DNA of 64,000 bases from a virus (taxonomy: Duplodnaviria; Heunggongvirae; Uroviricota; Caudoviricetes), in the IMG/VR virus record IMGVR_UViG_3300025858_001097. One strand, written 5' to 3'. The notes below the pieces were generated by a model, which did not search any database, was not told the origin of the DNA, and saw only the letters and a program-made list of their open reading frames with translations. Below, one piece after another: positions 2,878 to 63,545 of this stretch. Positions within the stretch are counted from its first letter, which is position 1. Each line of letters opens with the position of its first letter. The position numbers and the translations under genes are program-made.

Positions 2878-2908
2878 TACTTTTTCTCCTAAATATTTTT
2901 ATTATTTT

Positions 2909-3932: not shown

Positions 3933-3942
3933 TATATATTAA
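3933..3942 (-). promoter_or_regulatory. promoter-like box upstream of the AMMECR1 gene
   Basis: tatatattaa, 11 nt from the ATG. Confidence 0.4.
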
Positions 3943-22067: not shown

Positions 22068-25000
22068 TTATATTTCAGTGTTGTTAGCAGAAACATAGGA
22101 GTATTCAATGACATCAACAGTATATTTCAATTGAAGTTTATAACTTGGCGATGGATCCCATCCAGTAGCACTCCTTAAATTATTTTTTAATAATAGATAC
22201 GGTTTACTGCTATATATTAGAGCTTCCGCATCTATATCATTAGGACCTATTTGTCCTTGTGTATCTATCGATGCGTGACGACCCGGAGATGGTGTTTCTG
22301 AATTATACTTAACCCAATACCCCGAATGTTGAACTGTTTTAGTATCTGTTACATAATTAGTATAGCTACCAGTTTGATCTACAAAGACGTTGAAACGATA
22401 TTCTCTCATCGCTGCCAATGAATAATCGATTGCTGTCATTTGTGAAGTAGTGCCAGTATCCATTAAGTGATCCATATAGTAGTAACAATTAACCTTAACA
22501 GAGAATCCACTAGTTCCATTTCCACCTGTAACTCCGTGTGTTGTGGATAAGTCTATTTTACTTTGTGAAGCCCAAGCTGTGGCCCAACTAAACGGAGGTA
22601 TATCATTTACATAATAATACGTTACTCCAATTCCAGAGGTTCCACTACTGCCTGTTATTCCTGATGTTCCACTAGTTCCTGAAGTGCCACTAACGCCACT
22701 AGTTCCACTGGTGCCATCATTTCCAGATGTTCCGCTTGTTCCTCTAGCTCCAGATGTTCCGCTAGTTCCACTACTGCCTTGTTTTCCAGATGTTCCACTA
22801 GTTCCACTAGTGCCACCTGTTCCACTGGTTCCTGATGTACCTCCAGTTCCACTAGTTCCACTACTACCTGTTATTCCAGCGGTTCCGCTAGTTCCTGATG
22901 TACCGCCAGTGCCGCTAGTTCCACTACTGCCTTGTTTTCCAGATGTTCCACTAGTTCCACTTGTACCGCCTGTGCCTGAAGTACCACCAGTGCCATCATG
23001 TCCAGATGTTCCGCTTGTTCCACTACTACCATCATTTCCAGATGTTCCACTTGTACCGCCAGTACCATTTGTTCCTGATGTACCTCCAGTTCCACTAGTT
23101 CCACTACTACCTTGTCTTCCAGAAGTACCACTGGTTCCACTTGTACCGCCTGTACCATTTGTTCCTGATGTACCTCCAGTTCCACTGGTTCCGCTACTAC
23201 CATCATTTCCAGATGTGCCTGAAGTACCACCTGTTCCGCTAGTTCCAGAAGTACCACTACTACCATCATTACCAGATGTTCCACTGGTTCCGCTACTACC
23301 ATCATTTCCAGATGTTCCGCTAGTTCCACTACTACCATCATGTCCGGATGTTCCACTAGTTCCACTAGTTCCACCTGTGCCATTTGTTCCTGATGTACCA
23401 CCAGTTCCACTAGTTCCACTACTGCCTTGTTTTCCAGAAGTACCACTTGTGCCACTAGTTCCACCCGTACCATTTGTTCCTGATGTACCACCAGTTCCAC
23501 TGGTTCCACTACTTCCATCATGTCCTGATGTGCCTGAAGTTCCTCCAGTACCACTAGTTCCACTACTGCCATCATGTCCAGATGTTCCTGAAGTTCCACC
23601 CGTGCCTGAAGTACCGCTTGTACCACCAGTGCCATCATGTCCAGAAGTACCACTAGTTCCACTACTGCCATCGTGACCAGACGTACCTGAAGTACCACTT
23701 GTTCCACTAGTTCCTGATGTACCACTTGTTCCTGATGTACCACTACTGCCATCGTGACCAGACGTACCTGAAGTACCACTTGTTCCGCTTGTACCACTAC
23801 TTCCATCATGTCCTGATGTACCTGAAGTTCCTCCAGTACCTGAAGTTCCACTACTTCCATCATGACCAGATGTGCCTGCTGTTCCTGAAGTACCACCAGT
23901 ACCATTGGTTCCTGAAGTTCCGCCCGTTCCTGATGTACCACTACTACCATCATTTCCAGATGTTCCACTAGTTCCACCAGTTCCGTTTGTTCCTGAAGTT
24001 CCACCAGTTCCACTAGTTCCACTACTCCCTGAAGTACCGTTTGTTCCAGAAGTGCCTGAAGTGCCTCCAGTTCCACTTGTACCACTACTACCTTGTTTTC
24101 CAGAAGTACCACTTGTACCACTACTACCAGAAGCACCTGAAGTGCCTGAAGTTCCTCCAGTTCCACTAGTTCCACCTGTTCCATTTGTTCCTGATGTCCC
24201 ACCAGTTCCACTAGTCCCACTACTTCCTGTTAAACCTGAAGTTCCGCCAGTTCCTGAAGTTCCTCCTGTTCCCGAGGTACCACTACTACCTTGTTTTCCA
24301 GAAGTTCCGCTAGTTCCTGAAGTTCCTCCTGTTCCGCTGGTACCTGAAGTTCCACCAGTGCCACTAGTTCCACTACTACCATCGTGTCCAGATGTTCCAC
24401 TTGTTCCACTAGTTCCACTACTTCCTGAAGTTCCTCCAGTTCCACTAGTTCCACTGCTTCCAGAAGTTCCACTAGTCCCAGAAGTACCACTAGTACCTCC
24501 AGTACCACTAGTTCCACTACTACCTTGTTTTCCAGAAGTTCCGCTGGTTCCTGAAGTACCGCTTGTGCCGCCTGTTCCGCTAGTACCTGAAGTACCACCT
24601 GTACCACTAGTTCCACTACTGCCATCGTGTCCCGAAGTACCACTAGTACCTCCAGTTCCGCTAGTTCCACTACTACCATCATGTCCAGATGTTCCACTAG
24701 TTCCACTGCTACCTGAAGTTCCTGAAGTACCATTTGTTCCACTTGTACCTGAAGTTCCACTTGTACCACTACTACCTTGTTTTCCAGAAGTACCATTTGT
24801 ACCACTTGTACCACTACTACCTGAAGTTCCACCAGTTCCAGAAGTACCGCCAGTTCCATTTGTTCCTGAAGTGCCTCCAGTTCCGCTAGTTCCACTAGTT
24901 CCACTAGTTCCATCATGACCCGATGTTCCCGAAGTTCCACCTGTACCAGATGTTCCTGATGTCCCGCCTGTTCCGCTTGTTCCACTACTTCCATCATGAC

Positions 25001-28000
25001 CCGATGTTCCTGAAGTGCCACCCGTGCCTGAAGTACCACCTGTACCAGATGTTCCTGATGTCCCGCCTGTTCCGCTTGTTCCACTACTTCCATCATGACC
25101 CGATGTTCCTGAAGTGCCACCCGTGCCTGAAGTACCACCTGTGCCACCAGTTCCACTAGTTCCACTACTTCCAGAAGTTCCACTAGTTCCACTACTTCCA
25201 GAAGTTCCGCTTGTTCCACTACTACCATCGTGGCCAGAAGTTCCACTAGTTCCAGCAGTTCCACTTGTGCCAGAAGTGCCACCTGTTCCGCTTGTACCAC
25301 TACTTCCATCATGTCCAGATGTACCTGATGTTCCACTTGTTCCGGAAGTACCACCTGTTCCACTTGTACCACTACTTCCATCATGTCCAGATGTACCTGA
25401 TGTTCCACTTGTTCCTGCTGTACCTGATGTTCCACTTGTACCGCCTGTACCTGAAGTTCCACTACTACCTGATGTTCCACTCGTGCCACTAGTTCCCGAA
25501 GTACCACTACTACCTTGTTTTCCAGAAGTACCACTTGTACCACTAGTTCCACTACTTCCTGAAGTTCCACCAGTTCCAGAAGTACCACCTGTTCCATTTG
25601 TACCTGATGTACCACTTGTCCCGCTAGTTCCGCTAGTCCCACTACTACCATCATGTCCAGATGTTCCAGAAGTTCCAGAAGTACCACCTGTTCCGTTAGT
25701 TCCTGAAGTACCACCTGCTCCACTAGTTCCACTACTTCCATCATGACCTGAAGTTCCAGAAGTACCACTTGTCCCGCTAGTTCCGCTAGTCCCACTACTA
25801 CCATCATGTCCAGATGTTCCTGAAGTTCCAGAAGTACCACCTGTTCCACTAGTTCCACTACTTCCATCACGACCTGAAGTTCCTGAAGTGCCGCCTGTTC
25901 CGTTAGTTCCTGAAGTACCACCTGTTCCACTAGTTCCACTAGTTCCGCTTGTTCCACTACTACCACTAGTACCGCCAGTTCCGCCTGTACCAGAAGTACC
26001 ACTTGTTCCCGATGTGCCACTGCTACCATCATGACCGGAAGTTCCACTAGTTCCACTTGTTCCACTAGTTCCACTACTACCATCATGTCCAGAAGTACCA
26101 CTAGTTCCTGAAGTACCACCTGTTCCACTAGTTCCTGAAGTGCCGCCTGTTCCACTTGTACCACTGCTACCATCAACGCCCGAAGTTCCAGAAGTTCCTC
26201 CTGTACCTGATGTTCCATTTGTCCCACTTGTGCCTCCAGTGCCTGAAGTACCACTACTACCAGATGTGCCTGAAGTTCCTCCAGTACCACTAGTTCCACT
26301 ACTACCTTGTTTTCCAGAAGTACCACTAGTTCCACTACTTCCAGAAGTTCCTGAAGTGCCAGAAGTTCCCCCAGTGCCACTTGTTCCTCCAATACCACTA
26401 GTTCCACTACTTCCAGAAGTTCCTGAAGTGCCAGAAGTTCCCCCAGTGCCACTTGTTCCTCCAATACCACTAGTTCCACTACTTCCATCATAACCACTTG
26501 TTCCCGAAGTTCCTCCCGTACCTGATGTTCCTGAAGTACCACCTGTACCACTAGTTCCACTACTTCCATCATGACCACTTGTTCCAGAAGTGCCACTGCT
26601 ACCACTTGTACCGCTTGTTCCGCCAGTACCAGAAGTGCCACCTGTTCCACTAGTTCCACTAGTACCGCTACTACCATCGTGTCCTGATGTACCACTTGTT
26701 CCTGAAGTTCCTCCAGTACCACTAGTTCCGCTAGTTCCTGAAGTTCCACTACTTCCATCGTGACCAGAAGTACCACTAGTTCCACTAGTTCCGTTTGTTC
26801 CTGAAGTTCCACCAGTTCCACTACTTCCTGTCGCACCTGATGTTCCAGAGGTTCCGCCGGCACCGCTAGTTCCTGATGTACCGCCAGTTCCACTAGTTCC
26901 ACTACTTCCTCCTGTACCTGATGTGCCACTAGTTCCAGAAGTTCCACTCGTACCACCAGTTCCACTAGTTCCACTACTACCTTGTTTACCGGAAGTACCA
27001 CTTGTACCACTACTTCCAGAAGTTCCCGAAGTGCCTGAAGTTCCTCCAGTACCACTTGTTCCTCCAGTACCACTAGTTCCACTACTTCCTGTTGCGCCAG
27101 AAGTTCCAGATGTTCCGCCTGTTCCAGATGTACCACTAGTTCCACCTGTTCCAGATGTACCGCTACTCCCATCGTGACCTGAAGTACCTGATGTACCTGA
27201 AGTACCACTTGTTCCTCCTGTTCCTGAAGTTCCTCCAGTTCCGCTAGTCCCACTACTTCCTGAAGTTCCGCTAGTCCCACTTGTTCCTGAAGTTCCACCT
27301 GTGCCATTTGTTCCACTAGTACCACTTGATCCTGATACTCCACTTGTTCCACTAGTTCCTCCAGTTCCACTAGTTCCACCTGTTCCACTAGTTCCAGAAG
27401 AACCAGACGTACCACTTGTTCCGCTAGTTCCCGAAGTACCACTACTACCTTTTGCGCCCGAAGTTCCACTAGTTCCAGATATACCACTAGTTCCACCTGT
27501 ACCTGATGTACCGCTCGTGCCGCCAGTTCCGCTAGTCCCGCTACTTCCACTTGTACCACTACTACCAGATGTTCCATTAGTTCCTGAAGTACCACCAGTG
27601 CCATTCGTGCCACTCGTACCTCCAGTTCCTGAAGTACCACTACTACCTGATGTTCCACTAGTTCCACTACTTCCAGAAGTTCCACTAGTTCCACTAGTTC
27701 CAGAAGTGCCACTGCTACCTGATGTACCGCTAGATCCAGAAGTACCACTAGTTCCTGATGTACCTGAAGTTCCACTTGTTCCTGAAGTACCGCCTGTTCC
27801 ACTAGTACCGCTACTTCCTTGGGCTCCACTAGTTCCACTGGTTCCACTTGTACCCCCAGTACCGCTTGTTCCTGATGTCCCGCCTGTTCCACTAGTTCCA
27901 CTACTACCTTGAGCCCCACTAGTTCCTGAAGTACCACTGCTACCTTGTGCTCCGCTGGTTCCACTTGTACCACCAGTTCCGCTAGTTCCACTACTACCTT

Positions 28001-30764
28001 GAGCCCCGCTTGTTCCTGAAGTACCACCAGTACCACTCGTACCACTTGTACCACTTGTTCCCCCAGTACCACTAGTTCCACTACTACCTGATGTTCCACT
28101 AGTTCCACTACTTCCAGAAGTGCCTGAAGTTCCACCAGTTCCGCTTGTTCCAGATGAACCAGAAGTACCACTACTGCCCTGAGCTCCTGAAGTTCCAGAT
28201 GTACCACCAGTCCCAGATGTTCCACTAGTTCCGCCAGTTCCGCTAGTTCCACTACTTCCTGAAGTACCTGATGTTCCACTACTACCAGATGTTCCCCCCG
28301 TACCTGAAGTTCCGCTAGATCCAGATGTTCCTCCTGACCCGCTTGTACCAGATGTTCCACTTGTACCGCCAGTTCCGCTAGTTCCACTACTACCTTGAGC
28401 TCCACTAGTTCCACTCGTGCCACTAGTTCCTGAAGTTCCACTACTACCTTGAGCTCCACTAGTTCCACTTGTTCCGCTAGATCCGCTAGTTCCACTAGTA
28501 CCGCTTGTGCCCGATGTACCTGAAGTTCCACTAGAACCACTTGTACCGCTGGTTCCACTGATACCAGTCAATCCACTAGTTCCACTTGTTCCTGAGGTGC
28601 CCCCAGTTCCGCTCGTACCGCTAGATCCAGAAGTACCACTACTACCAGAAGTACCTGAAGAACCTGATGTTCCGCTAGTTCCACTACTACCTGATGTTCC
28701 ACTTGTTCCAGACGTACCACTAGTCCCGCTAGTACCTGAAGTTCCACTAGTTCCACTGGATCCTGAAGTTCCCCCAGTGCCACTAGTTCCACTACTACCT
28801 TGAGCTCCACTAGTTCCAGAAGTCCCACTACTACCTGATGTTCCACTTGTTCCAGAAGTACCACTACTACCCGATGTTCCAGATGTACCACCAGTCCCAG
28901 ATGTTCCACTACTTCCACTAGTCCCTGAAGTTCCTGATGTTCCAGACGAACCACTCGTTCCTGATGTTCCTCCTGTACCTGATGTTCCTCCGGTTCCACT
29001 ACTTCCTTGTGCTCCACTAGTTCCACTGGTTCCTGAAGTTCCGCTACTACCTGTTAAACCACTGGTTCCACTAGAACCACTAGTACCACTACTACCACTA
29101 GTTCCTGATGTTCCGCTTGTACCACTGCTGCCAGATGTTCCACTAGTACCACTACTTCCTGAAGTTCCACTAGTACCACTAGTTCCTGATGTTCCGCTTG
29201 TACCACTGCTGCCAGATGTTCCACTAGTACCACTACTTCCTGAAGTTCCACTAGTTCCGCTACTACCACTAGTTCCAGATGTACCACTACTACCTTGTGC
29301 TCCACTAGTTCCACTACTACCAGTTTCTCCTGATGTTCCGCTGGTTCCGCTTGTACCTGAAGTTCCACTGGAACCAAAACCACTAGTACCAGATGTTCCT
29401 AAACCAGCATCAGTATAAGTAAAAACAATAGGTTCGTCTAATATAAAATTGTTATTTGAATCTATCGGTGTAACATCTAATGTCCACCAAGATCCATTAT
29501 CTGTTTTAGCATCTAAATAAAAAGTTGCAAATTTAGTAGAATCGTATTCATCGAATATTCTGATTCTAGACATTCCATTGGCATTAAGACTACTTAACCA
29601 AGAACTTATATCAACACCATCTTTACTTGTCTGACTTATGTATATTTGAGTTACTGAACCGTATACAGTATTATCAAATTTTAAATATCCAGATAGAGGA
29701 TTTGATGCTGTTGTTCCTGTTAAGAAATAATATGGTTGGCTATCACCTCCAAATATTCCAGATAAACCAGAAGATCCAGGAGAACCCATACCTGATGTTC
29801 CACTAGTTCCACTTACACCACTACTTCCATAAAACCATCCATCAACACCAGATGATCCTGAAGTCCCACTACTTCCAGTTCCACCTTGAATATAAGATAT
29901 TAAATACGATTTCCCGTTTGTAGCTGAACCTCCTCCTGATGCGTAAACTGAAAATCCAGTTATTTCATAAAAATTGCCACCTAATCCAAGATTAACACTA
30001 TTAATGGGAACATTATATATGCCTACAACTGAAAGATTTTCTCTCTCTTCTATTTTTAATACGCCTTGAATATTCCACGAACTTAACCAATTATTTACAA
30101 GATCTCCATTCGCGTCCCATTTATTTATTCTTATATTTGTTACAGCCCCTAAATTTGAATTATTTATGTAGAATTTTCCATTCCCAGGAGTTGATGTACT
30201 ATTATCATAAACCCATTTACGCGTAGCTCCACCATAACCACCATCTATACCGCTACTTCCACTAGTTCCACTACTACCTCCGAGTCCTGATGTACCACTT
30301 GATCCACTAGAGCCTGATGTACCTGAAGATCCTGCTTCGCCGCTACTTCCACTTGTTCCGGATGTACCACTTGTGCCACTTGTTCCTCTACCGCTTGTTC
30401 CGCTTGTGCCACCTGTTCCACTCGTACCTCCAGTTCCACTGGTTCCGCCAGTTCCGTCTCTGCCGCTGCTACCACTTGATCCATCTCTACCACTACTACC
30501 ACTTGTTCCATCAGCTCCGCTTGATCCAAAGAAAACACCATCAACACCCGATGTACCGTCTTTTCCAGATGTGCCACTAGTTCCACCTCCACCACTTCCT
30601 GAAGATGTCGCACCAGTACATGGCAAATAATAAATATTTCCCCACTCGTCCTTTTGCCAAAGGCCGCAAAAACCATCTATAAAATCTTGACCTAAGTATA
30701 TATGCCCCGGATCTGGATTACCAATTAGTTTCGGGTCTACTCTTTGGATTTTTTTGAAACTCAT
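22068..30764 (-). CDS. giant collagen-like fibre protein 3 (2898 aa)
   Basis: Conserved N-terminal domain MSFKKIQRVDPKLIGNPDPGHIYLG. About 2250 residues of uninterrupted Gly-X-Y (mostly GTS/GSS, punctuated by GHD/GKQ/GND/GRD triplets). C-terminal globular domain of about 185 aa. Confidence 0.85.
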   Translation of the reverse strand: MSFKKIQRVDPKLIGNPDPGHIYLGQDFIDGFCGLWQKDEWGNIYYLPCTGATSSGSGGGGTSGTSGKDGTSGVDGVFFGSSGADGTSGSSGRDGSSGSSGRDGTGGTSGTGGTSGTGGTSGTSGRGTSGTSGTSGTSGSSGEAGSSGTSGSSGSSGTSGLGGSSGTSGSSGIDGGYGGATRKWVYDNSTSTPGNGKFYINNSNLGAVTNIRINKWDANGDLVNNWLSSWNIQGVLKIEERENLSVVGIYNVPINSVNLGLGGNFYEITGFSVYASGGGSATNGKSYLISYIQGGTGSSGTSGSSGVDGWFYGSSGVSGTSGTSGMGSPGSSGLSGIFGGDSQPYYFLTGTTASNPLSGYLKFDNTVYGSVTQIYISQTSKDGVDISSWLSSLNANGMSRIRIFDEYDSTKFATFYLDAKTDNGSWWTLDVTPIDSNNNFILDEPIVFTYTDAGLGTSGTSGFGSSGTSGTSGTSGTSGETGSSGTSGAQGSSGTSGTSGSSGTSGTSGSSGTSGTSGSSGTSGTSGTSGTSGTSGSSGTSGTSGSSGTSGTSGTSGSSGTSGSSGTSGLTGSSGTSGTSGTSGAQGSSGTGGTSGTGGTSGTSGSSGTSGTSGTSGSSGTSGTGGTSGTSGSSGTSGTSGTSGSSGTSGTSGAQGSSGTSGTGGTSGSSGTSGTSGTSGTSGTSGTSGTSGSSGTSGTSGSSGTSGSSGTSGSSGTSGTGGTSGTSGTSGLTGISGTSGTSGSSGTSGTSGTSGTSGTSGSSGTSGTSGAQGSSGTSGTSGTSGTSGAQGSSGTSGTGGTSGTSGTSGSGGTSGSSGTSGTGGTSGSSGTSGTSGSSGTSGTGGTSGTSGTGGTSGTSGAQGSSGTSGSSGTSGTGGTSGTSGSSGTSGTSGSSGTSGTGGTSGTSGTSGTGGTSGTSGAQGSSGTSGTGGTSGTSGAQGSSGTSGTSGAQGSSGTSGTGGTSGTSGTGGTSGTSGTSGAQGSSGTSGTGGTSGTSGTSGTSGTSGTSGSSGTSGSSGTSGTSGTSGTSGSSGTSGTSGSSGTSGTGGTSGTNGTGGTSGTNGTSGSSGTSGSSGTSGTGGTSGTSGTGGTSGISGTSGTSGAKGSSGTSGTSGTSGTSGSSGTSGTGGTSGTGGTSGTSGVSGSSGTSGTNGTGGTSGTSGTSGTSGSSGTSGTGGTSGTGGTSGTSGTSGTSGHDGSSGTSGTGGTSGTSGTGGTSGTSGATGSSGTSGTGGTSGTGGTSGTSGTSGSSGTSGTSGKQGSSGTSGTGGTSGTSGTSGTSGTGGSSGTSGTGGTSGTSGAGGTSGTSGATGSSGTGGTSGTNGTSGTSGTSGHDGSSGTSGTSGTSGTGGTSGTSGTSGHDGSSGTSGTSGTGGTSGTGGTSGTSGSSGTSGTSGHDGSSGTSGTGGTSGTSGTGGTSGTSGYDGSSGTSGIGGTSGTGGTSGTSGTSGSSGTSGIGGTSGTGGTSGTSGTSGSSGTSGTSGKQGSSGTSGTGGTSGTSGSSGTSGTGGTSGTNGTSGTGGTSGTSGVDGSSGTSGTGGTSGTSGTGGTSGTSGTSGHDGSSGTSGTSGTSGTSGHDGSSGTSGTSGTSGTGGTGGTSGSSGTSGTSGTSGTGGTSGTNGTGGTSGTSGRDGSSGTSGTGGTSGTSGTSGHDGSSGTSGTSGTSGTSGTSGHDGSSGTSGAGGTSGTNGTGGTSGTSGTSGHDGSSGTSGTSGTSGTSGTNGTGGTSGTGGTSGSSGTSGTSGTSGKQGSSGTSGTSGTSGTSGSSGTSGTGGTSGTSGTAGTSGTSGTSGHDGSSGTSGTGGTSGTSGTSGTSGHDGSSGTSGTGGTSGTSGTAGTSGTSGHDGSSGTSGTSGSSGTSGTSGSSGTSGTGGTGGTSGTGGTSGTSGHDGSSGTSGTGGTSGTSGTGGTSGTGGTSGTSGHDGSSGTSGTGGTSGTSGTGGTSGTSGHDGTSGTSGTSGTGGTSGTNGTGGTSGTGGTSGSSGTSGTNGTSGKQGSSGTSGTSGTSGTNGTSGTSGSSGTSGTSGHDGSSGTSGTGGTSGTSGHDGSSGTSGTGGTSGTSGTGGTSGTSGTSGTSGKQGSSGTSGTGGTSGTSGTSGTSGSSGTSGTGGTSGSSGTSGTSGTSGHDGSSGTSGTGGTSGTSGTGGTSGTSGTSGKQGSSGTSGTGGTSGTGGTSGLTGSSGTSGTGGTSGTNGTGGTSGTGGTSGTSGASGSSGTSGTSGKQGSSGTSGTGGTSGTSGTNGTSGSSGTSGTGGTSGTNGTGGTSGTSGNDGSSGTSGTGGTSGTNGTGGTSGTAGTSGHDGSSGTSGTGGTSGTSGHDGSSGTSGTSGTSGTSGHDGSSGTSGTSGTSGTSGTSGTSGTSGHDGSSGTSGTSGHDGTGGTSGTSGTGGTSGTSGHDGSSGTSGTGGTSGTSGHDGSSGTSGTGGTSGTNGTGGTSGTSGTSGKQGSSGTSGTGGTSGTNGTGGTSGTSGTSGHDGSSGTSGTSGNDGSSGTSGTSGNDGSSGTSGTSGTGGTSGTSGNDGSSGTSGTGGTSGTNGTGGTSGTSGTSGRQGSSGTSGTGGTSGTNGTGGTSGTSGNDGSSGTSGTSGHDGTGGTSGTGGTSGTSGTSGKQGSSGTSGTGGTSGTSGTAGITGSSGTSGTGGTSGTSGTGGTSGTSGTSGKQGSSGTSGTSGARGTSGTSGNDGTSGTSGVSGTSGTSGTSGITGSSGTSGIGVTYYYVNDIPPFSWATAWASQSKIDLSTTHGVTGGNGTSGFSVKVNCYYYMDHLMDTGTTSQMTAIDYSLAAMREYRFNVFVDQTGSYTNYVTDTKTVQHSGYWVKYNSETPSPGRHASIDTQGQIGPNDIDAEALIYSSKPYLLLKNNLRSATGWDPSPSYKLQLKYTVDVIEYSYVSANNTEI
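22626..29400 (-). repeat. about 6.8 kb of continuous 9-bp (Gly-X-Y) coding repeat
   Basis: GGN ACN AGN periodicity throughout; approximate bounds. Confidence 0.8.
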
Positions 30765-55023: not shown

Positions 55024-56079
55024 TTATTCTTGTTTTATTTCCACTTCTTTAGATTCAGCTTTAGTTTTTTCTTCGTCTTCTCTTTCTGTAACATATTTTC
55101 TGGGGCATTCTGCATGATAGGTATTATTCCATTGATAATTTCTATAAGGCTGTGGTAATCTTGTATAGTTGTCTGTTAATAAATTATGCTCGAAATTAAC
55201 ATACATCGAATCAAACGGACAATAATTCAGGAATCTGGTTTCTAATGATATTAAGAGGGTAGAGTAGTTTGGAGCGGTTGATTTTTCAATAGCGTTATAT
55301 TTATTTCTTAAATATTCTCTTATCATAATATCATATTTTCCCCCCACTCCATAAGCATTACCCCACACTGTATGAACTTCGCCCTTTTTCCAATCTCCAA
55401 CGGTTTCTACTTGTGGACCTTGTTGGAACGATCTACGTGCTACTATAACATCATTATCCCAAACAACAGCGACTCCACAATTATCTGGATTTTTTGTATA
55501 AATGTGAAATTGTGCTAAAGTTGGTTCTGGATAATTTCCAAACGCATTCTCGGCTTGTTTGAAATTAGCACAACTATAACCAAAATTTTTTATAAGTTCG
55601 TTGTTGTAATTGTAACCTCTGAGAAGTTCTTCGCCTCTATATTCTACAACTCGAGCGGATTTGTTTTTTATTTCAATGTTCCATTTATTTATAAAAGACT
55701 CTAAATCAACTGGTTTAATATAACTGTTTAAATAAGCTTCATTATACACTTCACGTAAAACTTTTGTTGATTTCATTTTAACTCTGCGCGGTGATGTCCA
55801 TAAATTTCCTTCGCTGAAAAAACGCGGTTTAATAAAAGAGATATTTCCTTCAGCGTCAACATCAAAATAATCTGGAGGTTCTTTTGTTGAATATTTTCTT
55901 TCAATACCTTCTTTTAATCTCAAATAAAATTCAGCCACTTTATATTCGTTTTTCATTGGCATTAAAATTTTCAAAAGTTTATTGGATATTTGAAAGAATA
56001 TCTTTTCATCTGGATCTTTTGGAGGAAGATCAGATTGAATTTGCTCATTAAGAAAATCTAAATAGTGTTTTATTATCAT
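55024..56079 (-). CDS. paralogous family member E (divergent)
   Basis: FGYSCANF, KNPDNCGV, ARR..QQG, YCPFD blocks; aligns with 56098 and more distantly with members A-D. Confidence 0.55.
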   Translation of the reverse strand: MIIKHYLDFLNEQIQSDLPPKDPDEKIFFQISNKLLKILMPMKNEYKVAEFYLRLKEGIERKYSTKEPPDYFDVDAEGNISFIKPRFFSEGNLWTSPRRVKMKSTKVLREVYNEAYLNSYIKPVDLESFINKWNIEIKNKSARVVEYRGEELLRGYNYNNELIKNFGYSCANFKQAENAFGNYPEPTLAQFHIYTKNPDNCGVAVVWDNDVIVARRSFQQGPQVETVGDWKKGEVHTVWGNAYGVGGKYDIMIREYLRNKYNAIEKSTAPNYSTLLISLETRFLNYCPFDSMYVNFEHNLLTDNYTRLPQPYRNYQWNNTYHAECPRKYVTEREDEEKTKAESKEVEIKQE

Positions 56080-56097
56080 TTCATTATTATTGTTTTT

Positions 56098-57126
56098 TTA
56101 CCCCATACTTAATCCTCTTGTAAAATAATATGGATCTCTTTCAAAATTTAAATCTGGTTCTGGTTTTGGTTCGTTTAGATGTTTTTCTTCTTCTATTCTT
56201 TTTTTAACAAGTTTTGTAGGACAACTTGCTCCATAAGCTCTTGTCCATTTATGATTTCCTCCTCCACCATCGGATAATAAATTATCTTCAAAACACACTT
56301 CCATTCCATCGAAAGGAGGGTATGTAAGAAATCTGGTTTCAAATTTAATAATAAAAGATCCATCTTTTGTATGCATTCCATTGGCGTTGTATTCTTCCCT
56401 TAAATAATCTCTTATCATAACGTCATACACACCACCACATCCATAATGATTTCCATAAACAGTATAATATTGTCCTTTTTTATAATATCCTCTATTTTCA
56501 ACTTGAATTCCTTGTTGATAAGTTCTTCTTCCCATTATTTTTCCTTTATCGACAACTACCACAACTCCACAATTATCTGGATTTTTAACATAAACATCAT
56601 AAATATTGGTGTTTCTACCTTTATACCAATTAGCGCAAGAAAGACCGAAATTAGAAGATAACTCTCCTGTTACACCATAAGCTCTAAGAACATCTTCACC
56701 TCTTAGATCTTCTATGTGAGGTTTGTTATCTTCTTTTCTGTGTAATATCGACCACTTATTTACAAAAGCTTCGATATCAGTTTGCTTTATCTGACTATTT
56801 ATATAAGACTCGTTGTATATGTCGCGTAATATTTTTGAAGCTTTAGATTTTTGTCTTCTTTGTGAAGAAAATTCATTTCCTTTAAATTCTTCAAAATATC
56901 TAGATTTTAAAAAACTTATATTTCCTTCTGTGTCAACATCTAAAAAATCAACTGGATCTGTCACCAAATATTTCCTATCTACTCCTTCTTTCAAGCTAAT
57001 AAGAAGCATGGCTACTTTATATTCATCCATCATTTTTGTGAGATCTTTCACTAAATTTTGAGATAAATTAAAGACTCTTCTATCTTCAACTTGCTCATTT
57101 ATAAATCTATCAAATCTAGTTATCAT
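56098..57126 (-). CDS. paralogous family member F (divergent)
   Basis: FGLSCANW, KNPDNCGV, GRR..QQG, YPPFD. Confidence 0.55.
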   Translation of the reverse strand: MITRFDRFINEQVEDRRVFNLSQNLVKDLTKMMDEYKVAMLLISLKEGVDRKYLVTDPVDFLDVDTEGNISFLKSRYFEEFKGNEFSSQRRQKSKASKILRDIYNESYINSQIKQTDIEAFVNKWSILHRKEDNKPHIEDLRGEDVLRAYGVTGELSSNFGLSCANWYKGRNTNIYDVYVKNPDNCGVVVVVDKGKIMGRRTYQQGIQVENRGYYKKGQYYTVYGNHYGCGGVYDVMIRDYLREEYNANGMHTKDGSFIIKFETRFLTYPPFDGMEVCFEDNLLSDGGGGNHKWTRAYGASCPTKLVKKRIEEEKHLNEPKPEPDLNFERDPYYFTRGLSMG

Positions 57127-57135
57127 ATTTAATTC

Positions 57136-57375
57136 TTATCTTTTTGCTAGTCCATACAAATATCCATTAACAAAAGTACTGATTATTAATGGAGATTCAC
57201 TTCCCCTGGTCGTAAATACGACTTTTCCCTCAATAGACACACTTCCGTTGGGACCATTCACATTCACGTTAAAACTTGGAACTCTTCTTTGTATCAATCT
57301 ACACATCAGAGTTAAATTTTCAGTGTCTTGTTGAGACCATTCTTCATTTACTTTAAAATCTTCAAAATTTTTCAT
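57136..57375 (-). CDS. hypothetical protein (about 79 aa from the internal ATG)
   Basis: The track ORF starts at a GTG (57420) inside the promoter-like box at 57394-57411, so the real start is probably the ATG at 57373-57375 (M16). Confidence 0.45.
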   Translation of the reverse strand: MKNFEDFKVNEEWSQQDTENLTLMCRLIQRRVPSFNVNVNGPNGSVSIEGKVVFTTRGSESPLIISTFVNGYLYGLAKR

Positions 57376-57475
57376 TAGTTCTTTTATTTTCTTAGTATAT
57401 ATATTAAAAAAATTAAACACATTTTATAAAAGGTAATATAAATAAGAAAATTATGATTTTTATAAAATAATATAT

Positions 57476-57619
57476 ATGAATATGATAAACAAAGAAAAAA
57501 TAACTATTTCCTTAGATAAAGAAATTATAGAAAAATTGGAAAAAATATCTGATGAACAATGCGTTAATAAAAGCAAATTCATAAATAAAATATTAAAAGA
57601 ACATTTTAAAAAATTATGA
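57476..57619 (+). CDS. ribbon-helix-helix (CopG/Arc-like) small DNA-binding protein, 47 aa
   Basis: Manual translation: MNMINKEKITISLDKEIIEKLEKISDEQCVNKSKFINKILKEHFKKL. A beta-strand plus two helices. Its stop overlaps the ATG of 57616 (ATGA). Confidence 0.45.
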   Translation: MNMINKEKITISLDKEIIEKLEKISDEQCVNKSKFINKILKEHFKKL

Positions 57620-59268
57620 TATTGTCAGAAAAAATTGATATAACGATATCAGCCAATAATAAAAAACATTATTTACAATGGTTTGATGATATCAAAGTAG
57701 GTGATAAGAAACAAGTATCTATCGAAATGATTCCTACGGGAAGTCATAAAATAATTACTTGTAAATGTGATATTTGTGGCGATGAAAAAAATATTCCATA
57801 TCGAGATTACATTAAGAGTTTAAATAATGGTAATATTTTTACATGCAATAAATGTAAAGATTTTAAAGTCAAAAAAACTAATCTGGAAAAATATGGAGCA
57901 AAAAATTATTATAACAAAGAAAAAAGTAAAAGAACATGTTTAGAAAAATATGGTGTCGAAAACGTTTTTCAAAATGAGGGCATAAAGAAAAGAATAAAGG
58001 AAAATAATTTGGAAAAATATGGAGTTGAATATACTTCACAAACAGAACATAATAAAAAGAAGTCGAAAGAAACTTGTATAGAGAAATATGGCGTAGAGCA
58101 TCATTTAAAAAACAAAGATATTTTAGATAAGCAACATCAAACTAATTTGGAGAGATATGGAGTCGAACACACTTCTCAAAATAAAGAGGTGATGAAAAAA
58201 ATAATAGAAAATTCAAAAAAGACAAGAAAAGAAACATTTTTAAATAAATATAAAAATAATCCAAATATTTTAGAAATAGATTACGAGAATAAAATTTTTA
58301 AAATGACATGTAACAAAGGTCATGTCTTTGAAATAAATTTTGGTCTATTTCATAATAGAAAAGTCTTGAAAAACGAATTTTGTGTCGTTTGTAATCCAAT
58401 AGATTCATCAACGAGTGATCTAGAAAATCAATTATTAAAATTCATCGGAGAAAATTATAATGGAACAATTAAAAAAAATAAAAAAATTCTAGAAGATTTC
58501 GAAATAGATATTTATCTGCCAGATTTAAAACTTGGATTTGAATTTAACGGATTATACTGGCATAGCGAATTGTTCAAAGATAAAAAATATCATCTAAATA
58601 AAACCGAAGAATCTGAAAGAAACGGAATAAAATTGATTCACATTTATGAGGACGACTGGTTATATAAACAAGAAATAGTAAAATCTAGAATATTAAATCT
58701 TTTGGGCAAATCCGAAAAAATTCACGCTAGAAAATGTGAAATTAAAGAAATAGAAAACAATGATTTGATTAGAGAATTTCTCAATAAGAATCATTTACAA
58801 GGATTCGTTGGGTCAAAAGTAAAAATAGGACTATTTTATAACGATGAGTTAGTTTCTTTGATGACGTTTGGTGCTCTTAGAAAATCCTTGGGACAATCAA
58901 AAGTAAAAGATGTTTATGAAATGATAAGATTTTGTAATAAATTAAATACCAATGTAATAGGAGGGGCTGGTCGCATGTTTAAATATTTTATAGAAAAATA
59001 TAATCCCAAAGAAATTATAAGTTATGCAGATAGAAGTTGGTCATCCGGTGGTTTATATGAGAAACTAGAATTTAAATTGGTGCATAAAACGAGGCCAAAT
59101 TATTATTATTTTAAAAATAAAAACAAATATCATAGATTTAACTTTAGAAAAGATATTTTAATAAAAAACGGAGCTGATCCAAATAAAACAGAGTACGATA
59201 TAATTGTTGAGAAAGGATATTATAGAATATATGACTCTGGAAATCTAAAATTTATCTGGACATCTTAA
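57616..59268 (+). CDS. homing-endonuclease-like protein: Zn-finger N-terminus, KYG(V)E tandem repeats, DUF559/Vsr-like nuclease core (EFNGLYWH) and a C-terminal domain
   Basis: Five or more repeats of about 22 aa containing LEKYGVE; IDIYLPDLKLGFEFNGLYWHSE; paralogous at its N-terminus and repeats to 61385..62275. Confidence 0.55.
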   Translation: MILSEKIDITISANNKKHYLQWFDDIKVGDKKQVSIEMIPTGSHKIITCKCDICGDEKNIPYRDYIKSLNNGNIFTCNKCKDFKVKKTNLEKYGAKNYYNKEKSKRTCLEKYGVENVFQNEGIKKRIKENNLEKYGVEYTSQTEHNKKKSKETCIEKYGVEHHLKNKDILDKQHQTNLERYGVEHTSQNKEVMKKIIENSKKTRKETFLNKYKNNPNILEIDYENKIFKMTCNKGHVFEINFGLFHNRKVLKNEFCVVCNPIDSSTSDLENQLLKFIGENYNGTIKKNKKILEDFEIDIYLPDLKLGFEFNGLYWHSELFKDKKYHLNKTEESERNGIKLIHIYEDDWLYKQEIVKSRILNLLGKSEKIHARKCEIKEIENNDLIREFLNKNHLQGFVGSKVKIGLFYNDELVSLMTFGALRKSLGQSKVKDVYEMIRFCNKLNTNVIGGAGRMFKYFIEKYNPKEIISYADRSWSSGGLYEKLEFKLVHKTRPNYYYFKNKNKYHRFNFRKDILIKNGADPNKTEYDIIVEKGYYRIYDSGNLKFIWTS

Positions 59269-60013
59269 ACCAAGATACGGTGCTTTGTTCCTTTATATAA
59301 GTTTTTACTTCTTCTACCATTTCTTTTCCTTGTGTGATAATATCATTAGCGTTATAAGTAAAGTTACCTGGCATGTTGAAATTAAAACGACCAATCAATT
59401 CGCCCATTCTGCTTCTACACATTCCAATAACAAATCTTTTAAACATTTCAAAATCAAATAATTCTTCTTCTTGAATTCTTACCCAGCATTCCAACATTAA
59501 ATTGGATTGATCTTTAATTTCTGATAAAAAGTGCAATCTTTTGTTTATGTGATTGTAGTTATGAGCTATGGTGTTTTTTGTAAGTTTATTAATTTCATCA
59601 GCAAAATAACTAATAGTAGATCTATAAAGCGCCAAATCACCAGCTGTAGTTACAAAAGAAGTCAAGAATGGTTGATTGGTTACACCAAGATTGATGGATA
59701 GATTTGGCGCTTGAATACCTAATCTGAACAAAGATGTATCTTCCATTTTCACTATCTTTGTTATATTTTCAACTTCCTCGGGTAATTGAAAATATTGAAA
59801 CATCGCATATGTTTCTCTCGCCAGTTTGTCATATTTTAGAAAATAATAAAATTTTTGAACTGCGTATTGATAATTCTTATAAAACCACTCCAGAGCAATT
59901 TCTTTAATAACACGTCTAACTTCTTGATCGGGAAGAACTTTTGGAAGTGATCCAGAGAATGTTAAATCCTGTTGTACAATATCTATTAACTGCTCAAATG
60001 TTATTGAAGCCAT
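59252..60013 (-). CDS. hypothetical protein (253 aa)
   Basis: ORF track; promoter box 60031-60047. Confidence 0.5.
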   Translation of the reverse strand: MASITFEQLIDIVQQDLTFSGSLPKVLPDQEVRRVIKEIALEWFYKNYQYAVQKFYYFLKYDKLARETYAMFQYFQLPEEVENITKIVKMEDTSLFRLGIQAPNLSINLGVTNQPFLTSFVTTAGDLALYRSTISYFADEINKLTKNTIAHNYNHINKRLHFLSEIKDQSNLMLECWVRIQEEELFDFEMFKRFVIGMCRSRMGELIGRFNFNMPGNFTYNANDIITQGKEMVEEVKTYIKEQSTVSWFKMSR

Positions 60014-60030: not shown

Positions 60031-60047
60031 TCTATATATTAATTTTT
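60031..60047 (-). promoter_or_regulatory. promoter-like box upstream of 59252..60013
   Basis: tctatatattaattttt. Confidence 0.4.
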
Positions 60048-60482
60048 ATTATCTAAATATTTTTTAATTACAAAATCAAATAAATCTTTGTGTTTATTAA
60101 AATAATCATGTATTGGAATTAATAGAATATCTAGAACAATACGATATATATTGTCATCGTCTATTTTTTTAATGTTACCTTTTTTTATATTATAAGAAGG
60201 TCTGAATTCGAAATCCGATATCATATCCCACTCTCCGATTGTTCCAAAATAAACATATTCATTATCTCGTATTTTTAAATAAATTTCAAAAGATGCTGAT
60301 GTTAGAACAATTCGCGTTTTAGAAGTTTTTTTTACATATAAAGAGTTATCTAATTCTTTAAAATCAATTTCATCCCAGTCTTCCTCGCCATAAGGATCTA
60401 ATGGATTATATGCGATAATTCGTTTTTTATTTCCAATAAATTTCAATTCTTCTGATATAACAAATTCTTCAAAAGTTACCAT
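60039..60482 (-). CDS. hypothetical protein with an N-terminal DPYGEEDW motif
   Basis: AYNPLDPYGEEDWDEIDF. Confidence 0.5.
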   Translation of the reverse strand: MVTFEEFVISEELKFIGNKKRIIAYNPLDPYGEEDWDEIDFKELDNSLYVKKTSKTRIVLTSASFEIYLKIRDNEYVYFGTIGEWDMISDFEFRPSYNIKKGNIKKIDDDNIYRIVLDILLIPIHDYFNKHKDLFDFVIKKYLDNKN

Positions 60483-60498
60483 TTCTTCTAATTTGCCT

Positions 60499-60747
60499 TT
60501 ATTCCACCATCTTATTTTGGGAGTAAAAAATTCTTTTTTTTAATTCAAAATGACCGAGAGTCATTCTCATGTCTTTTTGTACATCATTTTCAAATTTTAT
60601 CGTAGCAATATGTCCACCTGGACGAATTTTTACTATTTCCCCTATTCCAGGATCATCTTGATATCCTACAAGACCCGTGTATCTTACAATATCCCCAACT
60701 TGTAATAAATCGACATTATCTACTGTTATTCTAATCCATCTTTTCAT
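60499..60747 (-). CDS. hypothetical small beta-rich protein
   Basis: The track start at 60750 is a TTG; an ATG lies at 60745-60747; promoter-like box at 60751-60768. Confidence 0.5.
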   Translation of the reverse strand: MKRWIRITVDNVDLLQVGDIVRYTGLVGYQDDPGIGEIVKIRPGGHIATIKFENDVQKDMRMTLGHFELKKRIFYSQNKMVE

Positions 60748-60780
60748 CAACTTTATATATTAAATTTTGAAAAATTTTTT

Positions 60781-60806: not shown

Positions 60807-61406
60807 ATGAAAATGATAAGATTTTCTGACTACATAAAAGAAGCAGCAAACATAAAAAGCAACGACGGGATACTTGTTATAGTTGATGTTCAAAAACAAT
60901 TTGATAAGTTTACTCCACAGAATTTTGAAGGAAATATTTCAAAATATTGCAAAGAATTTCCAAAAGATGATAACTCGGGCAAAGGAGTCTATCAAATATG
61001 GGACGCTAACAAAGCTCAAAATTTTAGTTACAACTTCCCAAACACTTTACAAGTTATTAAAAAAAATTATGGAACTAAATTTGATAATAGAATAAGGAAA
61101 ATAGCAGAAAATTTATCCAAAAAATATCCAAATGCTAAAGAAGGACAACAATTCAAATTAAAAGATAGCAATTCATTTTTGGTTAGAGTTAACAACAATC
61201 ACAAATGGTTTTATGTCAACGAAGATTTATATAATCTTTATTTGAAATTAAAAGGAAAAACTATTATATTGGTTGGTGGAGCCTCGGAAGAATGTCTCTC
61301 AGATTTATATGTCTCCATGAAATCCTTCGGGATTAATCCAATCTACAACCACGATTATATTTATAGTGCTCAAACCAACGATAATCAGGTAGCTGCCCCC
61401 AAATAA
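60807..61406 (+). CDS. hypothetical protein (199 aa)
   Basis: Promoter-like box TTAATATATAAAAC at 60781-60794. Confidence 0.5.
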   Translation: MKMIRFSDYIKEAANIKSNDGILVIVDVQKQFDKFTPQNFEGNISKYCKEFPKDDNSGKGVYQIWDANKAQNFSYNFPNTLQVIKKNYGTKFDNRIRKIAENLSKKYPNAKEGQQFKLKDSNSFLVRVNNNHKWFYVNEDLYNLYLKLKGKTIILVGGASEECLSDLYVSMKSFGINPIYNHDYIYSAQTNDNQVAAPK

Positions 61407-62275
61407 TCTTCATAATTTCTATTATATTTCTTAGAATTAATACGTCTCTTTGTTAAACACAAATTTTTAATGTCTGCTATATCTTCAGCATTAATTTTAT
61501 TTTTAAATCCCTCAAAAATTGTTATTTTATGATCGATCGTTGGATAATTCCCATCGTGATATGGTAAACTAAAATTATCTCTTATATATTCACCGTCATA
61601 ATAATCTAATCCGTTCCAATTTTCTAATAATTTATTTTTGACTTTTTTTGTCAACGAATAAACTTTACTTTTATATAAATCGAACTCGTTTGTTAAAATA
61701 TTATATCCCATTTTTTTGTGATATTCAAGTCTTTTCTCCGCCATTTCTTTCGACATTTGCGGATGTGGAACACCATAATTTTTCATACTAGTTTCTTCAC
61801 TTTTTCCTTTAAAATCTTTATTTAACACATAATATTCAACACCATGTTTCTCCAACATCGTTTTCTTTCTCTTCTTTTTAATATTTTCACATTTAGAAGG
61901 ATTATCCACTCCATAGTTTTTGATATTAGTTTCTTTGACTCTTTTTTTAGATTCTTCTGTTTTAGAATAATATTCCACTCCAAATTTATTCAAAGAGGTC
62001 AATTTAGCTTTCATTCTACCACATTTTGATCCACAAACATAAATGTTGTGTTTATTGAAACTTTTTAGGTAGTGTCTATACATCAAATCTTTTTCTTTTC
62101 CACAGACATCACATTTAACTTTAACTATACTATGACTTCCTTTGTTTAAATGCTCTACCGGAACTATCAATTTTTCTCCCTTTTTTAGATTTGAATATCC
62201 AAGTGATATAAAATGTTTAAAATTGGCTGAATTTAAAGTCACCTCAGCTTCTTTACTTATTATCATTTTTATCAT
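61385..62275 (-). CDS. HNH homing endonuclease with a Zn-finger N-terminus and KYG(V)E repeats
   Basis: Repeats FGVEYY / NYGVDNP / KHGVEYY / NYGVPHP; C-terminal YHDGNYPTIDHKI...N HNH motif. Confidence 0.6.
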   Translation of the reverse strand: MIKMIISKEAEVTLNSANFKHFISLGYSNLKKGEKLIVPVEHLNKGSHSIVKVKCDVCGKEKDLMYRHYLKSFNKHNIYVCGSKCGRMKAKLTSLNKFGVEYYSKTEESKKRVKETNIKNYGVDNPSKCENIKKKRKKTMLEKHGVEYYVLNKDFKGKSEETSMKNYGVPHPQMSKEMAEKRLEYHKKMGYNILTNEFDLYKSKVYSLTKKVKNKLLENWNGLDYYDGEYIRDNFSLPYHDGNYPTIDHKITIFEGFKNKINAEDIADIKNLCLTKRRINSKKYNRNYEDYLGAAT

Positions 62276-62396
62276 TTTTATTTTTTAAAAATTCTTTTAT
62301 CAATATTTCTGTTAATTTATTAATTTGATATCCATTTTCTTTACAAAAGATTTTGAATTCTTCGTGGGTTTCATTTTCAATGTGTAGAGTTTTCAT
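62253..62396 (-). CDS. ribbon-helix-helix-like small protein, 47 aa, overlapping the start of the HNH gene
   Basis: Manual translation: MKTLHIENETHEEFKIFCKENGYQINKLTEILIKEFLKNKNDKNDNK; promoter-like box at 62412-62429. Confidence 0.4.
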   Translation of the reverse strand: MKTLHIENETHEEFKIFCKENGYQINKLTEILIKEFLKNKNDKNDNK

Positions 62397-62460
62397 ATGA
62401 CGATATTTTATTATTATATATTAAAATAAAAAGTCAAAAAATACCAATTTTGATAGCATA

Positions 62461-62492
62461 AAAAAGGGAACCAAAATTTGGTTCCCTTTTTA
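62461..62492 (-). terminator. intrinsic terminator downstream of the SPFH gene
   Basis: aaaaagggaacc-aaaattt-ggttcccttttt. Confidence 0.6.
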
Positions 62493-62510: not shown

Positions 62511-63545
62511 TTACTGGATTGGCATCATCATTGTCATGTTTGTTCCCTGCCCCATCATATAATTTGGAAGCTGTCCATCCCATTTATTAATCCATTCGAG
62601 AGTAATAATCTTTGGATTTTTATTAATAGCATCTCCCTTGATCTGAAGAGCTTTAGCTTCACCTTCGGCTGTCTGAATGACAATTTCCTTATCAATCTTA
62701 GCCTGAATTAGGAGTTCCGACTTTTGTTTGGTCACTTCAATAAGAGTGAGAGCTTTCTGTTCCTGAACCTTTTTATTCTTGATTTCCTCTTCGTATTTTG
62801 GATCGTAATAAACTTCACGAATGTCTATCTGTTCAAGAATGATACGCCAAGATGCCAATTCTTGCTTCATTTTGGCAAGAACCTTATCCTGAATTTCCTT
62901 ACGTTTCATAGAATAAGTTTGAATAGGAGTATACTCAGAAACAGTCAAAGCGAGACAAGATTTCAGTTTAGCTCTAATAACATTCTCTTCCAACCAAAGA
63001 TAACGACTCGATTCATTTCCATCTTGGGGAGTTACGTTCTGATAAATCCAGGGAGCTTGATTAGCATCGATCTTCCATGATGCAGAAATGTCAAATCCCA
63101 TTTTAATACCTTCTGATGTTGGAGCCCAAATAGCATCGTCATTCTTATCCTGTCCATCTTTTGCCTGTTGAGCGCAGGTGTAAACCCACACAGTCTTATC
63201 CATAATGTGAACATCCCACCAAGGCATTACAACACGCCAACCCGTGTGAAGAGGTTCTTGTTTAACTCCAGTTGGAGTTGTTACAACACCAACACTCTGA
63301 CCATCAATTTTTACAATGAAAATCCAAAAAAGAATTAAAAGAATAAAAGATATTCCTGATATCCATGCAACGGGCACAGTAAAAGGCAAATTAAAAGCCG
63401 GTGGTGCCTGTCTTCCACGATTTCCACCAGCCTCTTGTACCCTCAAGAAATCCTCACGATTCATTTTTGAAACTTTATTGGCGATTCCTCCGCCAATACC
63501 ATAAATTAGCCCAAGAAGAGCTAAAATAACTAATAATGCCATCAT
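62511..63545 (-). CDS. SPFH / band-7 (stomatin/HflKC-like) membrane protein
   Basis: N-terminal TM helix; SPFH core; C-terminal coiled-coil EAKALQIKGDAI. Confidence 0.7.
   Translation of the reverse strand: MMALLVILALLGLIYGIGGGIANKVSKMNREDFLRVQEAGGNRGRQAPPAFNLPFTVPVAWISGISFILLILFWIFIVKIDGQSVGVVTTPTGVKQEPLHTGWRVVMPWWDVHIMDKTVWVYTCAQQAKDGQDKNDDAIWAPTSEGIKMGFDISASWKIDANQAPWIYQNVTPQDGNESSRYLWLEENVIRAKLKSCLALTVSEYTPIQTYSMKRKEIQDKVLAKMKQELASWRIILEQIDIREVYYDPKYEEEIKNKKVQEQKALTLIEVTKQKSELLIQAKIDKEIVIQTAEGEAKALQIKGDAINKNPKIITLEWINKWDGQLPNYMMGQGTNMTMMMPIQ

Follow-up and report, generated by a model that had tools for sequence, protein, structure and literature searches.

Homing endonuclease genes must supply enough nuclease to spread while doing no damage to the genome that carries them, and they are known to be kept in check by a nuclease that represses itself (I-TevI), by RNA structures or by being coupled to open reading frames (ORFs) of the host. 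Here, we analyse two gene pairs in a 64,000-nt stretch of DNA from an uncultivated huge phage (Caudoviricetes; IMG/VR record IMGVR_UViG_3300025858_001097; hereafter the window), each composed of a gene for a small ribbon-helix-helix (RHH) protein, RHH1 or RHH2, and a gene for an endonuclease, HEF1 or HNH2. We consider it rather probable that each pair is a free-standing homing endonuclease cassette whose RHH protein serves as a translationally coupled controller, or autorepressor, of the nuclease. Each ingredient is already known by itself (free-standing endonucleases of the Hef-like and HNH kinds, RHH repressors, translational coupling); no description of a fixed two-gene RHH-nuclease mobile cassette turned up in the literature that could be searched, apart from a passing mention in a preprint of 2026.

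The closest described systems come from phage T4, where I-TevI binds an operator at its own late promoter and represses it, and where free-standing endonuclease genes overlap upstream ORFs in an arrangement read as a coupling that limits nuclease output (PMC2988022). Like the T4-type free-standing genes (seg, mob; Hef of phage U5; I-Bth0305I-type EDxHD), the nuclease genes of the window are intergenic, lie beside conserved genes, are present in some relatives and absent from others, have a late-type promoter and start in overlap with an upstream ORF. Here, however, that ORF is not a host gene but a cassette-borne RHH gene that moves with the nuclease, and the nucleases carry a zinc ribbon and KYG (DUF7487) repeats instead of NUMOD or helix-turn-helix (HTH) modules. 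With I-TevI they share the presumed need to restrict nuclease expression from a late promoter, but whereas I-TevI represses through its own DNA-binding domain, the putative repressor of the cassettes is a separate RHH protein.

Three further systems join a small DNA-binding protein to a partner gene. The genes of C proteins share a transcript with those of restriction endonucleases (PMC2175313), and such operons give timed and limited nuclease expression (PMC2175313, PMC2377437). The cassettes resemble those of C.PvuII, C.AhdI and C.Esp1396I in being mobile units with the gene of a small DNA-binding protein directly 5' of the nuclease gene. C-protein operons, however, rely on an HTH fold, C-boxes and a protective methyltransferase, whereas the fold here is RHH, or a MerR-type HTH in one relative; no methyltransferase gene lies beside either cassette and no C-box-like operator could be established. 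Arc represses IS605-family promoters, and Arc homologues have been remarked beside homing endonuclease genes (bioRxiv 10.64898/2026.09.24.754181). As with the IS605 Arc, an RHH protein of about 50 aa sits inside a selfish element with a nuclease used for the maintenance of the element, but the cassettes belong to a phage, their nuclease is protein-guided and has no guide RNA, and their two genes keep a fixed order and overlap. Neither TnpA nor TnpB occurs in the context tables of the RHH loci, where phage structural genes and DUF7487 nucleases are found instead. Type II toxin-antitoxin modules with RHH antitoxins (MazE-mt, ParD, RelB, CopA/CopG-like) show the same order of overlapping genes and likewise have an RHH domain at the N-terminus; in contrast to them, the proteins of the window have no C-terminal toxin-binding region, and their partners belong to a mostly solitary homing endonuclease family.

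The two cassettes are laid out as follows.

57446-57461, plus strand: GAAAATTATGATTTTT element, directly upstream of the cassette-1 box, with a single exact match in the window
57468-57476, plus strand: promoter-like box TAATATATA of cassette 1, 5-11 nt upstream of the RHH1 start
57476-57619, plus strand: RHH1, 47 aa
57616-59268, plus strand: HEF1, 550 aa, of the Hef-type homing endonuclease family
61385-62275, minus strand: HNH2, 296 aa, a short DUF7487 endonuclease
62253-62396, minus strand: RHH2, 47 aa
62415-62423, minus strand: promoter-like box TAATATATA of cassette 2, upstream of RHH2
62433-62455, minus strand: TATCAAAATTGGTATTTTTTGAC, three TGAY/RTCA half-sites spaced by about one helical turn

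The original prediction, made from the sequence without database searches, that a 47-aa ORF precedes and overlaps each nuclease gene agrees with these coordinates. RHH1 and HEF1 overlap by 4 nt (ATGA). The overlap of RHH2 and HNH2 measures 23 nt and shrinks to 14 nt with the second ATG of HNH2 (62266) as start, which is probably the true one as it aligns with homologues. Similarly, RHH1 probably begins at 57482 (45 aa), because its homologues begin at MINKEK. Each pair has a single promoter box on its 5' side and reading frames that overlap or abut, a layout that suggests co-transcription of the RHH and nuclease genes. A programmed frameshift that would fuse the two products was excluded, as the nuclease gene lies in the -1 frame with respect to RHH1 but in the +1 frame with respect to RHH2, and as some relatives have no overlap at all (the genes abut in locus L106 and are 2 nt apart in L111).

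A TATATA box had also been assigned to each pair as its own. Such a box does stand before both, but it is not particular to them: the window holds 25 copies of TAATATATA where 3.2 are expected, mostly shortly 5' of ORF starts, and the copies typically lie 10-30 nt upstream of the start, those of structural genes included, with a T-run before them (further sites are, for example, at 3933, 9391, 15788, 22031, 41786, 52396, 60033, 60754 and 60782). Judged by this distribution, TAATATATA is a generic promoter-like motif of the phage and not a cassette-specific one, and it is probably the phage's own late-type promoter consensus.

The pairing of the two genes is not peculiar to the window. In a survey begun from the RHH side, and unbiased as to neighbours, a DUF7487 gene lies directly 3' on the same strand in nine of nine RHH homologues with readable contigs (P0001, P0004, P0015, P0021, P0030, P0057, P0065, P0072 and P0098; P0044 was left out). 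All strong RHH matches, from 116 fetched loci, stand at a nuclease start, either overlapping it by 23, 14 or 4 nt or separated from it by a gap of 0-2 nt. The flanks of these cassettes comprise the 3' end of gp13, the 3' end of p199, the interval between a T4-type portal gene and a large gene, and a fourth context, which gives at least four different insertion sites.

How the RHH genes vary across these sites bears on their role. RHH proteins of one subtype, 'FTI', are 54-74% identical, whereas their partner nucleases are only 29-41% identical over the first 200 residues, and this subtype is paired with both Hef-type and HNH-type nucleases. This suggests that the RHH proteins are the more constrained partners and are exchanged between nucleases. 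As they are conserved above the site-recognition module and serve cassettes at different sites, a target in a conserved element common to the cassettes, and not in the variable homing site, fits best. In locus L058, a 52-aa protein of the MerR family (2846-3004; 7.8e-12) takes the RHH position and its gene has an ATGA overlap with the start of a Hef gene; a non-homologous HTH in the same slot points to a regulatory role through DNA binding. A convergent downstream neighbour follows 8 of 9 RHH-bearing and 38 of 78 RHH-less Hef genes (loci L001-L116; one-sided Fisher p = 0.023, for cases that are phylogenetically non-independent).

The view of the pairs as mobile cassettes, for which the original prediction suggested a comparison of related genomes as a check, is borne out by relatives in which the sites are empty or hold other nucleases or none. 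The features that matter for this comparison are the following.

59252-59268, tail-to-tail: 17-nt overlap of the gp13-like gene and HEF1, the right-hand edge of cassette 1
59252-60013, minus strand: T4 gp13-like neck gene, whose product matches Phage_T4_gp13
~61415-62455, minus strand: inserted block of cassette 2 (promoter, RHH2, HNH2), ~1.04 kb, missing from locus L088 by BLASTN and alignment
62511-63545, minus strand: SPFH/Band-7 gene, adjoining cassette 2

The gp13 of L088 is 92% identical to that of the window, and both cassettes are absent from this relative, which has the gene order SPFH - p199 - gp13 - p351-like. At site 2, the window differs from L088 by exactly the promoter box, RHH2 and HNH2, and both junctions carry TATG. 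The left junction follows immediately on the conserved SPFH terminator (62460-62490), and the right one falls at the 3' end of p199, into whose complement the final ~8 codons of HNH2 read. At site 1, the gp13 stop codon is exactly where homology between the window and L088 ceases. On its 5' side, cassette 1 is less sharply delimited than cassette 2, because the edge is blurred by an orphan gene, p94 (57136-57420, minus strand), whose TAATATATA box and the RHH1 promoter stand back-to-back. No counterpart of p94 is found in L088 or at any other cassette locus, and we left it out of the cassette for want of a homologue at the others.

Further relatives extend the pattern. L088, L093 and L095-L098 have no insertion at the gp13 3' end, whereas L089, L090, L092, L094 and L101 carry Hef genes there that have 41-60% identity to HEF1. 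Where cassettes of the same subtype lie at different sites, sequence homology begins ~25-30 nt upstream of the TATATA box and the flanks are unrelated. Because the L088 indel takes promoter, RHH gene and nuclease gene together, the RHH gene is, by this alignment, part of the mobile unit; an RHH gene that was the original resident, targeted by the nuclease, was ruled out as L088 has neither. Apparently decaying cassettes also occur, with an intact RHH gene and a DUF7487 nuclease split into two ORFs (L108-L110 and one P0030 contig), and such copies fit the life cycle of homing endonucleases.

Both small ORFs had been described as RHH-like, and profile searches, AlphaFold2 (AF2) models and Foldseek agree on that fold. 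RHH1 matches Pfam RHH_3 (1.7e-5; 25.1 bits, above the cut-off of 21.6), and both proteins match PHROG 3180, 'Arc-like repressor' (1.1e-5 for RHH1 and 4.6e-7 for RHH2). RHH2 stays below the Pfam cut-offs, with weak matches to Omega_Repress (2e-3) and ParG, and falls into the same profile family as RHH1. The AF2 models, which are of monomers, have predicted local distance difference test (pLDDT) scores of 86.6 for RHH1 and 85.9 for RHH2, and show an extended N-terminus followed by two helices (residues 13-25 and 30-44 in RHH1, 8-21 and 25-42 in RHH2). The best PDB matches in Foldseek are CopG (probability 0.97) and Arc for RHH1, and ParG (probability 0.99, TM 0.72), then ORF56, Arc and CopG, for RHH2. 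The neighbours of both are essentially all RHH proteins, the DNA-binding domains of MazE-type antitoxins among them, and the very small size of the domain keeps the E-values no better than 0.05-0.07.

The small ORFs are also conserved in relatives. Close homologues number 7 for RHH1 (72-86% identical) and 14 for RHH2, and a joint profile collects 99 proteins of 43-70 aa. Pairwise ratios of nonsynonymous to synonymous substitution rates (dN/dS) are 0.06-0.18 for RHH1 and 0.24 for RHH2, with dS near saturation. By these measures, both ORFs are real genes for RHH proteins under purifying selection, and the two outcomes named as refuting the original prediction, small ORFs that are not conserved and the lack of a predicted RHH fold, are not what is observed. 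Members of the RHH (Arc/MetJ/CopG) superfamily bind operator DNA as dimers through their paired beta-strands, and RHH1 and RHH2 may do likewise. This RHH clade has no significant match in 50,697 GenBank phage records, including the published huge phages of 0.46-0.74 Mb.

Turning to the nucleases, Pfam DUF7487 is found in both (2.2e-23 in HEF1, 8.2e-16 in HNH2), and the two are 37% identical across ~210 N-terminal residues (E 1e-34 to 1e-38). The original prediction of a common N-terminal zinc finger with repeats of about 22 aa holds: the shared module consists of a CxxC...CxxC zinc ribbon and K.K.T.LEKYGVE units with a period of 19-23 aa, of which HEF1 has 5 (aa 84-206) and HNH2 has 4 (aa 89-183).

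HEF1 C51/C54/C77/C80: zinc ribbon; C232/C256/C259: second Cys cluster
HEF1 ~aa 286-361: predicted Vsr-like/EDxHD nuclease domain; ~aa 370-545: Mom/GNAT-like C-terminal domain
HNH2 C55/C58/C81/C85: zinc ribbon; aa 229-291: C-terminal HNH-like domain

In HEF1, residues 61-548 match PHROG 3339 ('homing endonuclease', 1e-127), and the protein has 35-39% identity with those annotated as Hef or homing endonucleases in jumbo phages of Campylobacter, Klebsiella and Pseudomonas. Its catalytic region had been assigned to the DUF559/Vsr type, for which we find moderate support. Pfam MTES_1575, a Vsr/DUF559-like restriction endonuclease family, is matched by 14 of 25 HEF1 homologues, all below threshold (best 7.6e-5), and the Vsr model by one of the 25 (0.097). 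The HEF1 profile weakly matches the catalytic domain of I-Bth0305I (PDB 3r3p) over the right region (E 0.21), and E296, D298, H316, E345 and D346 are invariant in HEF1 homologues. Taylor et al. assign Hef-type enzymes to the Vsr-like EDxHD lineage (PMC3239194). The C-terminal domain of the Hef type (window 58724-59250 in HEF1) matches Pfam Mom in 3 of the 25 homologues (7.8e-7) and, weakly, GNAT families.

For HNH2, the HNH core named in the same prediction is plausible but weakly supported. The C-terminal domain has D248-H249-K250, N259, N271 and N280 invariant among 6 homologues, and two of these six family members weakly match PHROG 9645, 'HNH endonuclease' (E 0.011); searches of Pfam, NCBIfam and PDB with this domain gave no match, and PDB sequence searches with both nucleases yielded nothing usable apart from 3r3p. 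Homing activity of HEF1 and HNH2 is suggested by family membership together with the presence and absence patterns described above. A 201-aa ORF of phage T6 (L117, 1171-1776), located between the genes for the tail sheath and the tail tube, has a treble-clef zinc finger and 36% identity to the C-terminal domain of HNH2. It is found in ~70 T-even genomes, annotated as 'head morphogenesis' or 'hypothetical', and is likely an unrecognised free-standing endonuclease.

From these observations, we propose the following mechanism. Each cassette comprises one generic TAATATATA box, an RHH gene of 45-50 aa and a DUF7487 nuclease gene whose start codon is placed inside the RHH gene or right at its end. 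During co-infection, the nuclease would recognise its target through the zinc ribbon and the KYG-repeat array, and cut the cassette-less allele beside a conserved gene, next to the 3' end of either the gp13-like neck gene or p199, by means of its Vsr-like/EDxHD domain in HEF1 or its HNH-like domain in HNH2, whereupon recombinational repair would copy the whole cassette into the cut allele. As the RHH dimer accumulates, it would bind the promoter region of its own cassette and shut it off, while translational coupling through the overlaps (4, 14 or 23 nt) would hold nuclease output under RHH output. The result would be a short and limited nuclease pulse, with little antisense transcription into the converging neighbour. 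Promoter binding and repression by the RHH protein, as well as the translational coupling, are what we infer from a bare DNA-binding domain, shared across sites, replaced in one relative by a MerR-type HTH, and from the precedents outlined above.

Candidate binding sites were sought upstream of the boxes. The GAAAATTATGATTTTT element is kept in the related cassettes of L080, L001, L092 and L111 and may be either an operator or a promoter-associated box. The TATCAAAATTGGTATTTTTTGAC-type arrangement also lies upstream of the box in L102, L103 and L106, which makes it a candidate operator of RHH2-type cassettes. Elements conserved within a subtype are ATCAAAAWTGAYTATTTWTGAC in RHH2-type cassettes and TATATAACAATAAATAACAATA in the 'FTI' subtype, a conservation that common descent of the cassettes could explain. 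WTGAY/RTCAW elements are enriched 5' of the cassette promoter boxes relative to 15 control boxes (Mann-Whitney p = 0.004). We do not call them the operator, as they cross RHH subtypes and occur at some RHH-less Hef genes.

Several of these results weigh against an autorepressor. Upstream of the cassettes, no operator was found that tracks the RHH subtype; a GGAAAAATATGAC-type element is common to cassettes whose RHH beta-strands differ, and TGAY boxes also precede some Hef genes that have no RHH gene, such that the TGAY-type elements may instead be promoter elements. Furthermore, ~95% of the Hef-like genes sampled lack an RHH gene (one is present in 4 of 79 Hef-anchored IMG/VR loci), and at the gp13 site itself, the Hef genes of L090 and L101 have no RHH partner. 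As most Hef-like genes do without it, the RHH protein would be dispensable for homing.

A broader version of the idea is more doubtful. In it, the RHH protein is more than a simple autorepressor, namely a portable controller that lets homing cassettes settle antisense against essential late genes, through either a self-limiting pulse of nuclease and antisense transcription or occupancy of the donor junction that confers immunity, and such controllers (RHH proteins, and the MerR-HTH of L058) form a general and overlooked accessory class similar to the C proteins of restriction-modification systems. We put this forward tentatively, as a possibility with rather low odds.

Four other explanations of the RHH gene were weighed. 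A role in homing itself, in which the RHH protein acts at or near the homing site and either shields the donor copy or helps to find the target, would account for the strict linkage to the nuclease (nine of nine) and for cassettes that adjoin their presumed target genes, and RHH proteins are able to bind short repeats anywhere. Binding to a specific site is nevertheless improbable, because one RHH subtype serves different sites (gp13, p199 and others) alongside diverged DNA-binding arrays, and the gp13 site is also held by Hef genes without an RHH partner; we regard this explanation as unlikely. We give no more credit to the notion of hitch-hiking cargo, in which the RHH protein controls other genes of the phage or host, such as those of a divergent neighbour or a competitor phage, and merely rides on the cassette. 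The RHH1 promoter is indeed back-to-back with that of p94 (boxes at 57398-57406, minus strand, and 57468-57476, plus strand), and the upstream gene is divergent in most cassettes, but the identity of these neighbours varies, p94 has no homologue at other cassettes, and it is the junction between RHH and nuclease that is invariant.

The original prediction had kept a toxin-antitoxin-like pair as an alternative, in which the RHH protein would neutralise the nuclease by binding it, in addition to repressing the operon, and so make the cassette addictive. A small RHH gene that comes first and overlaps the nuclease gene has the order of a type II module, models of the MazE, BrnA and RelB antitoxins match RHH1 below threshold, and RHH antitoxins are among the Foldseek matches. 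Against this, the proteins of 45-50 aa amount to a bare DNA-binding domain: the match to NCBIfam MazE spans positions 1-36 of 69 (29.9 bits against a cut-off of 65), and since it ends at position 36 the toxin-binding C-terminal segment is absent, while the nuclease start codons, which overlap the tail in another frame, determine its few residues. One RHH subtype accompanies nucleases that are 29-41% identical and of two catalytic types, most nucleases of the family have no partner, and the setting is the structural region of a lytic-type huge phage, neither a plasmid nor a chromosome. The partner proteins match no PADLOC defence family, which also speaks against a defence system, and no Pfam toxin family. 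With no toxin-binding tail, no PADLOC match and mostly solitary nucleases, the pair is disfavoured, and we rate it as very unlikely. Least credible of all is a leader ORF with a functionless protein that serves translational coupling alone, for although the small ORF always overlaps or abuts the nuclease start and T4 endonuclease genes use host ORFs in this way (PMC2988022), the confident RHH fold, the dN/dS of 0.06-0.24 and a conservation above that of the nucleases point to selection on the RHH protein itself.

If the RHH protein is the controller of its cassette, a dedicated repressor-type protein would add another solution to the control of nuclease levels in homing elements, and the design logic of restriction-modification C proteins and transposon Arc would have appeared independently in a third class of selfish nucleases. 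The module is compact (~1-2 kb), comes in several RHH and nuclease combinations and is amenable to reporter and cleavage assays, and it could provide matched nuclease and regulator pairs for engineering. It would also add a concrete function to many unannotated proteins of at most 50 aa in huge-phage genomes.

The rest of the window is a block of structural genes, chiefly on the minus strand, with a GC content of ~28% outside a gene for a collagen-like protein, and its nearest GenBank matches are metagenomic phages of 0.46-0.74 Mb (LR756500-LR756504). The collagen-like protein (2898 aa; 22068-30764, minus strand; Pfam Collagen 2.7e-187) consists of 33% Gly, 26% Ser and 22% Thr, in G-T/S-S triplets, and its gene forms a GC island (0.44-0.50 against 0.28 for the genome) with many spurious ORFs in its other frames. 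A Metallophos gene is also among the cassette neighbours. To the left of cassette 1, p351 and p342 (55024-57126, minus strand) are tandem paralogues with 45% identity, of which L088 likewise has two copies; the Pfam scan, which took in p342 and not p351, gave no match for p342. Between gp13 and p199, two small genes (147 and 83 aa; 60039-60750, minus strand) have no counterpart in L088, where the spacing of gp13 and p199 is only ~290 nt, which marks 60039-60750 as another indel hot spot of the region.

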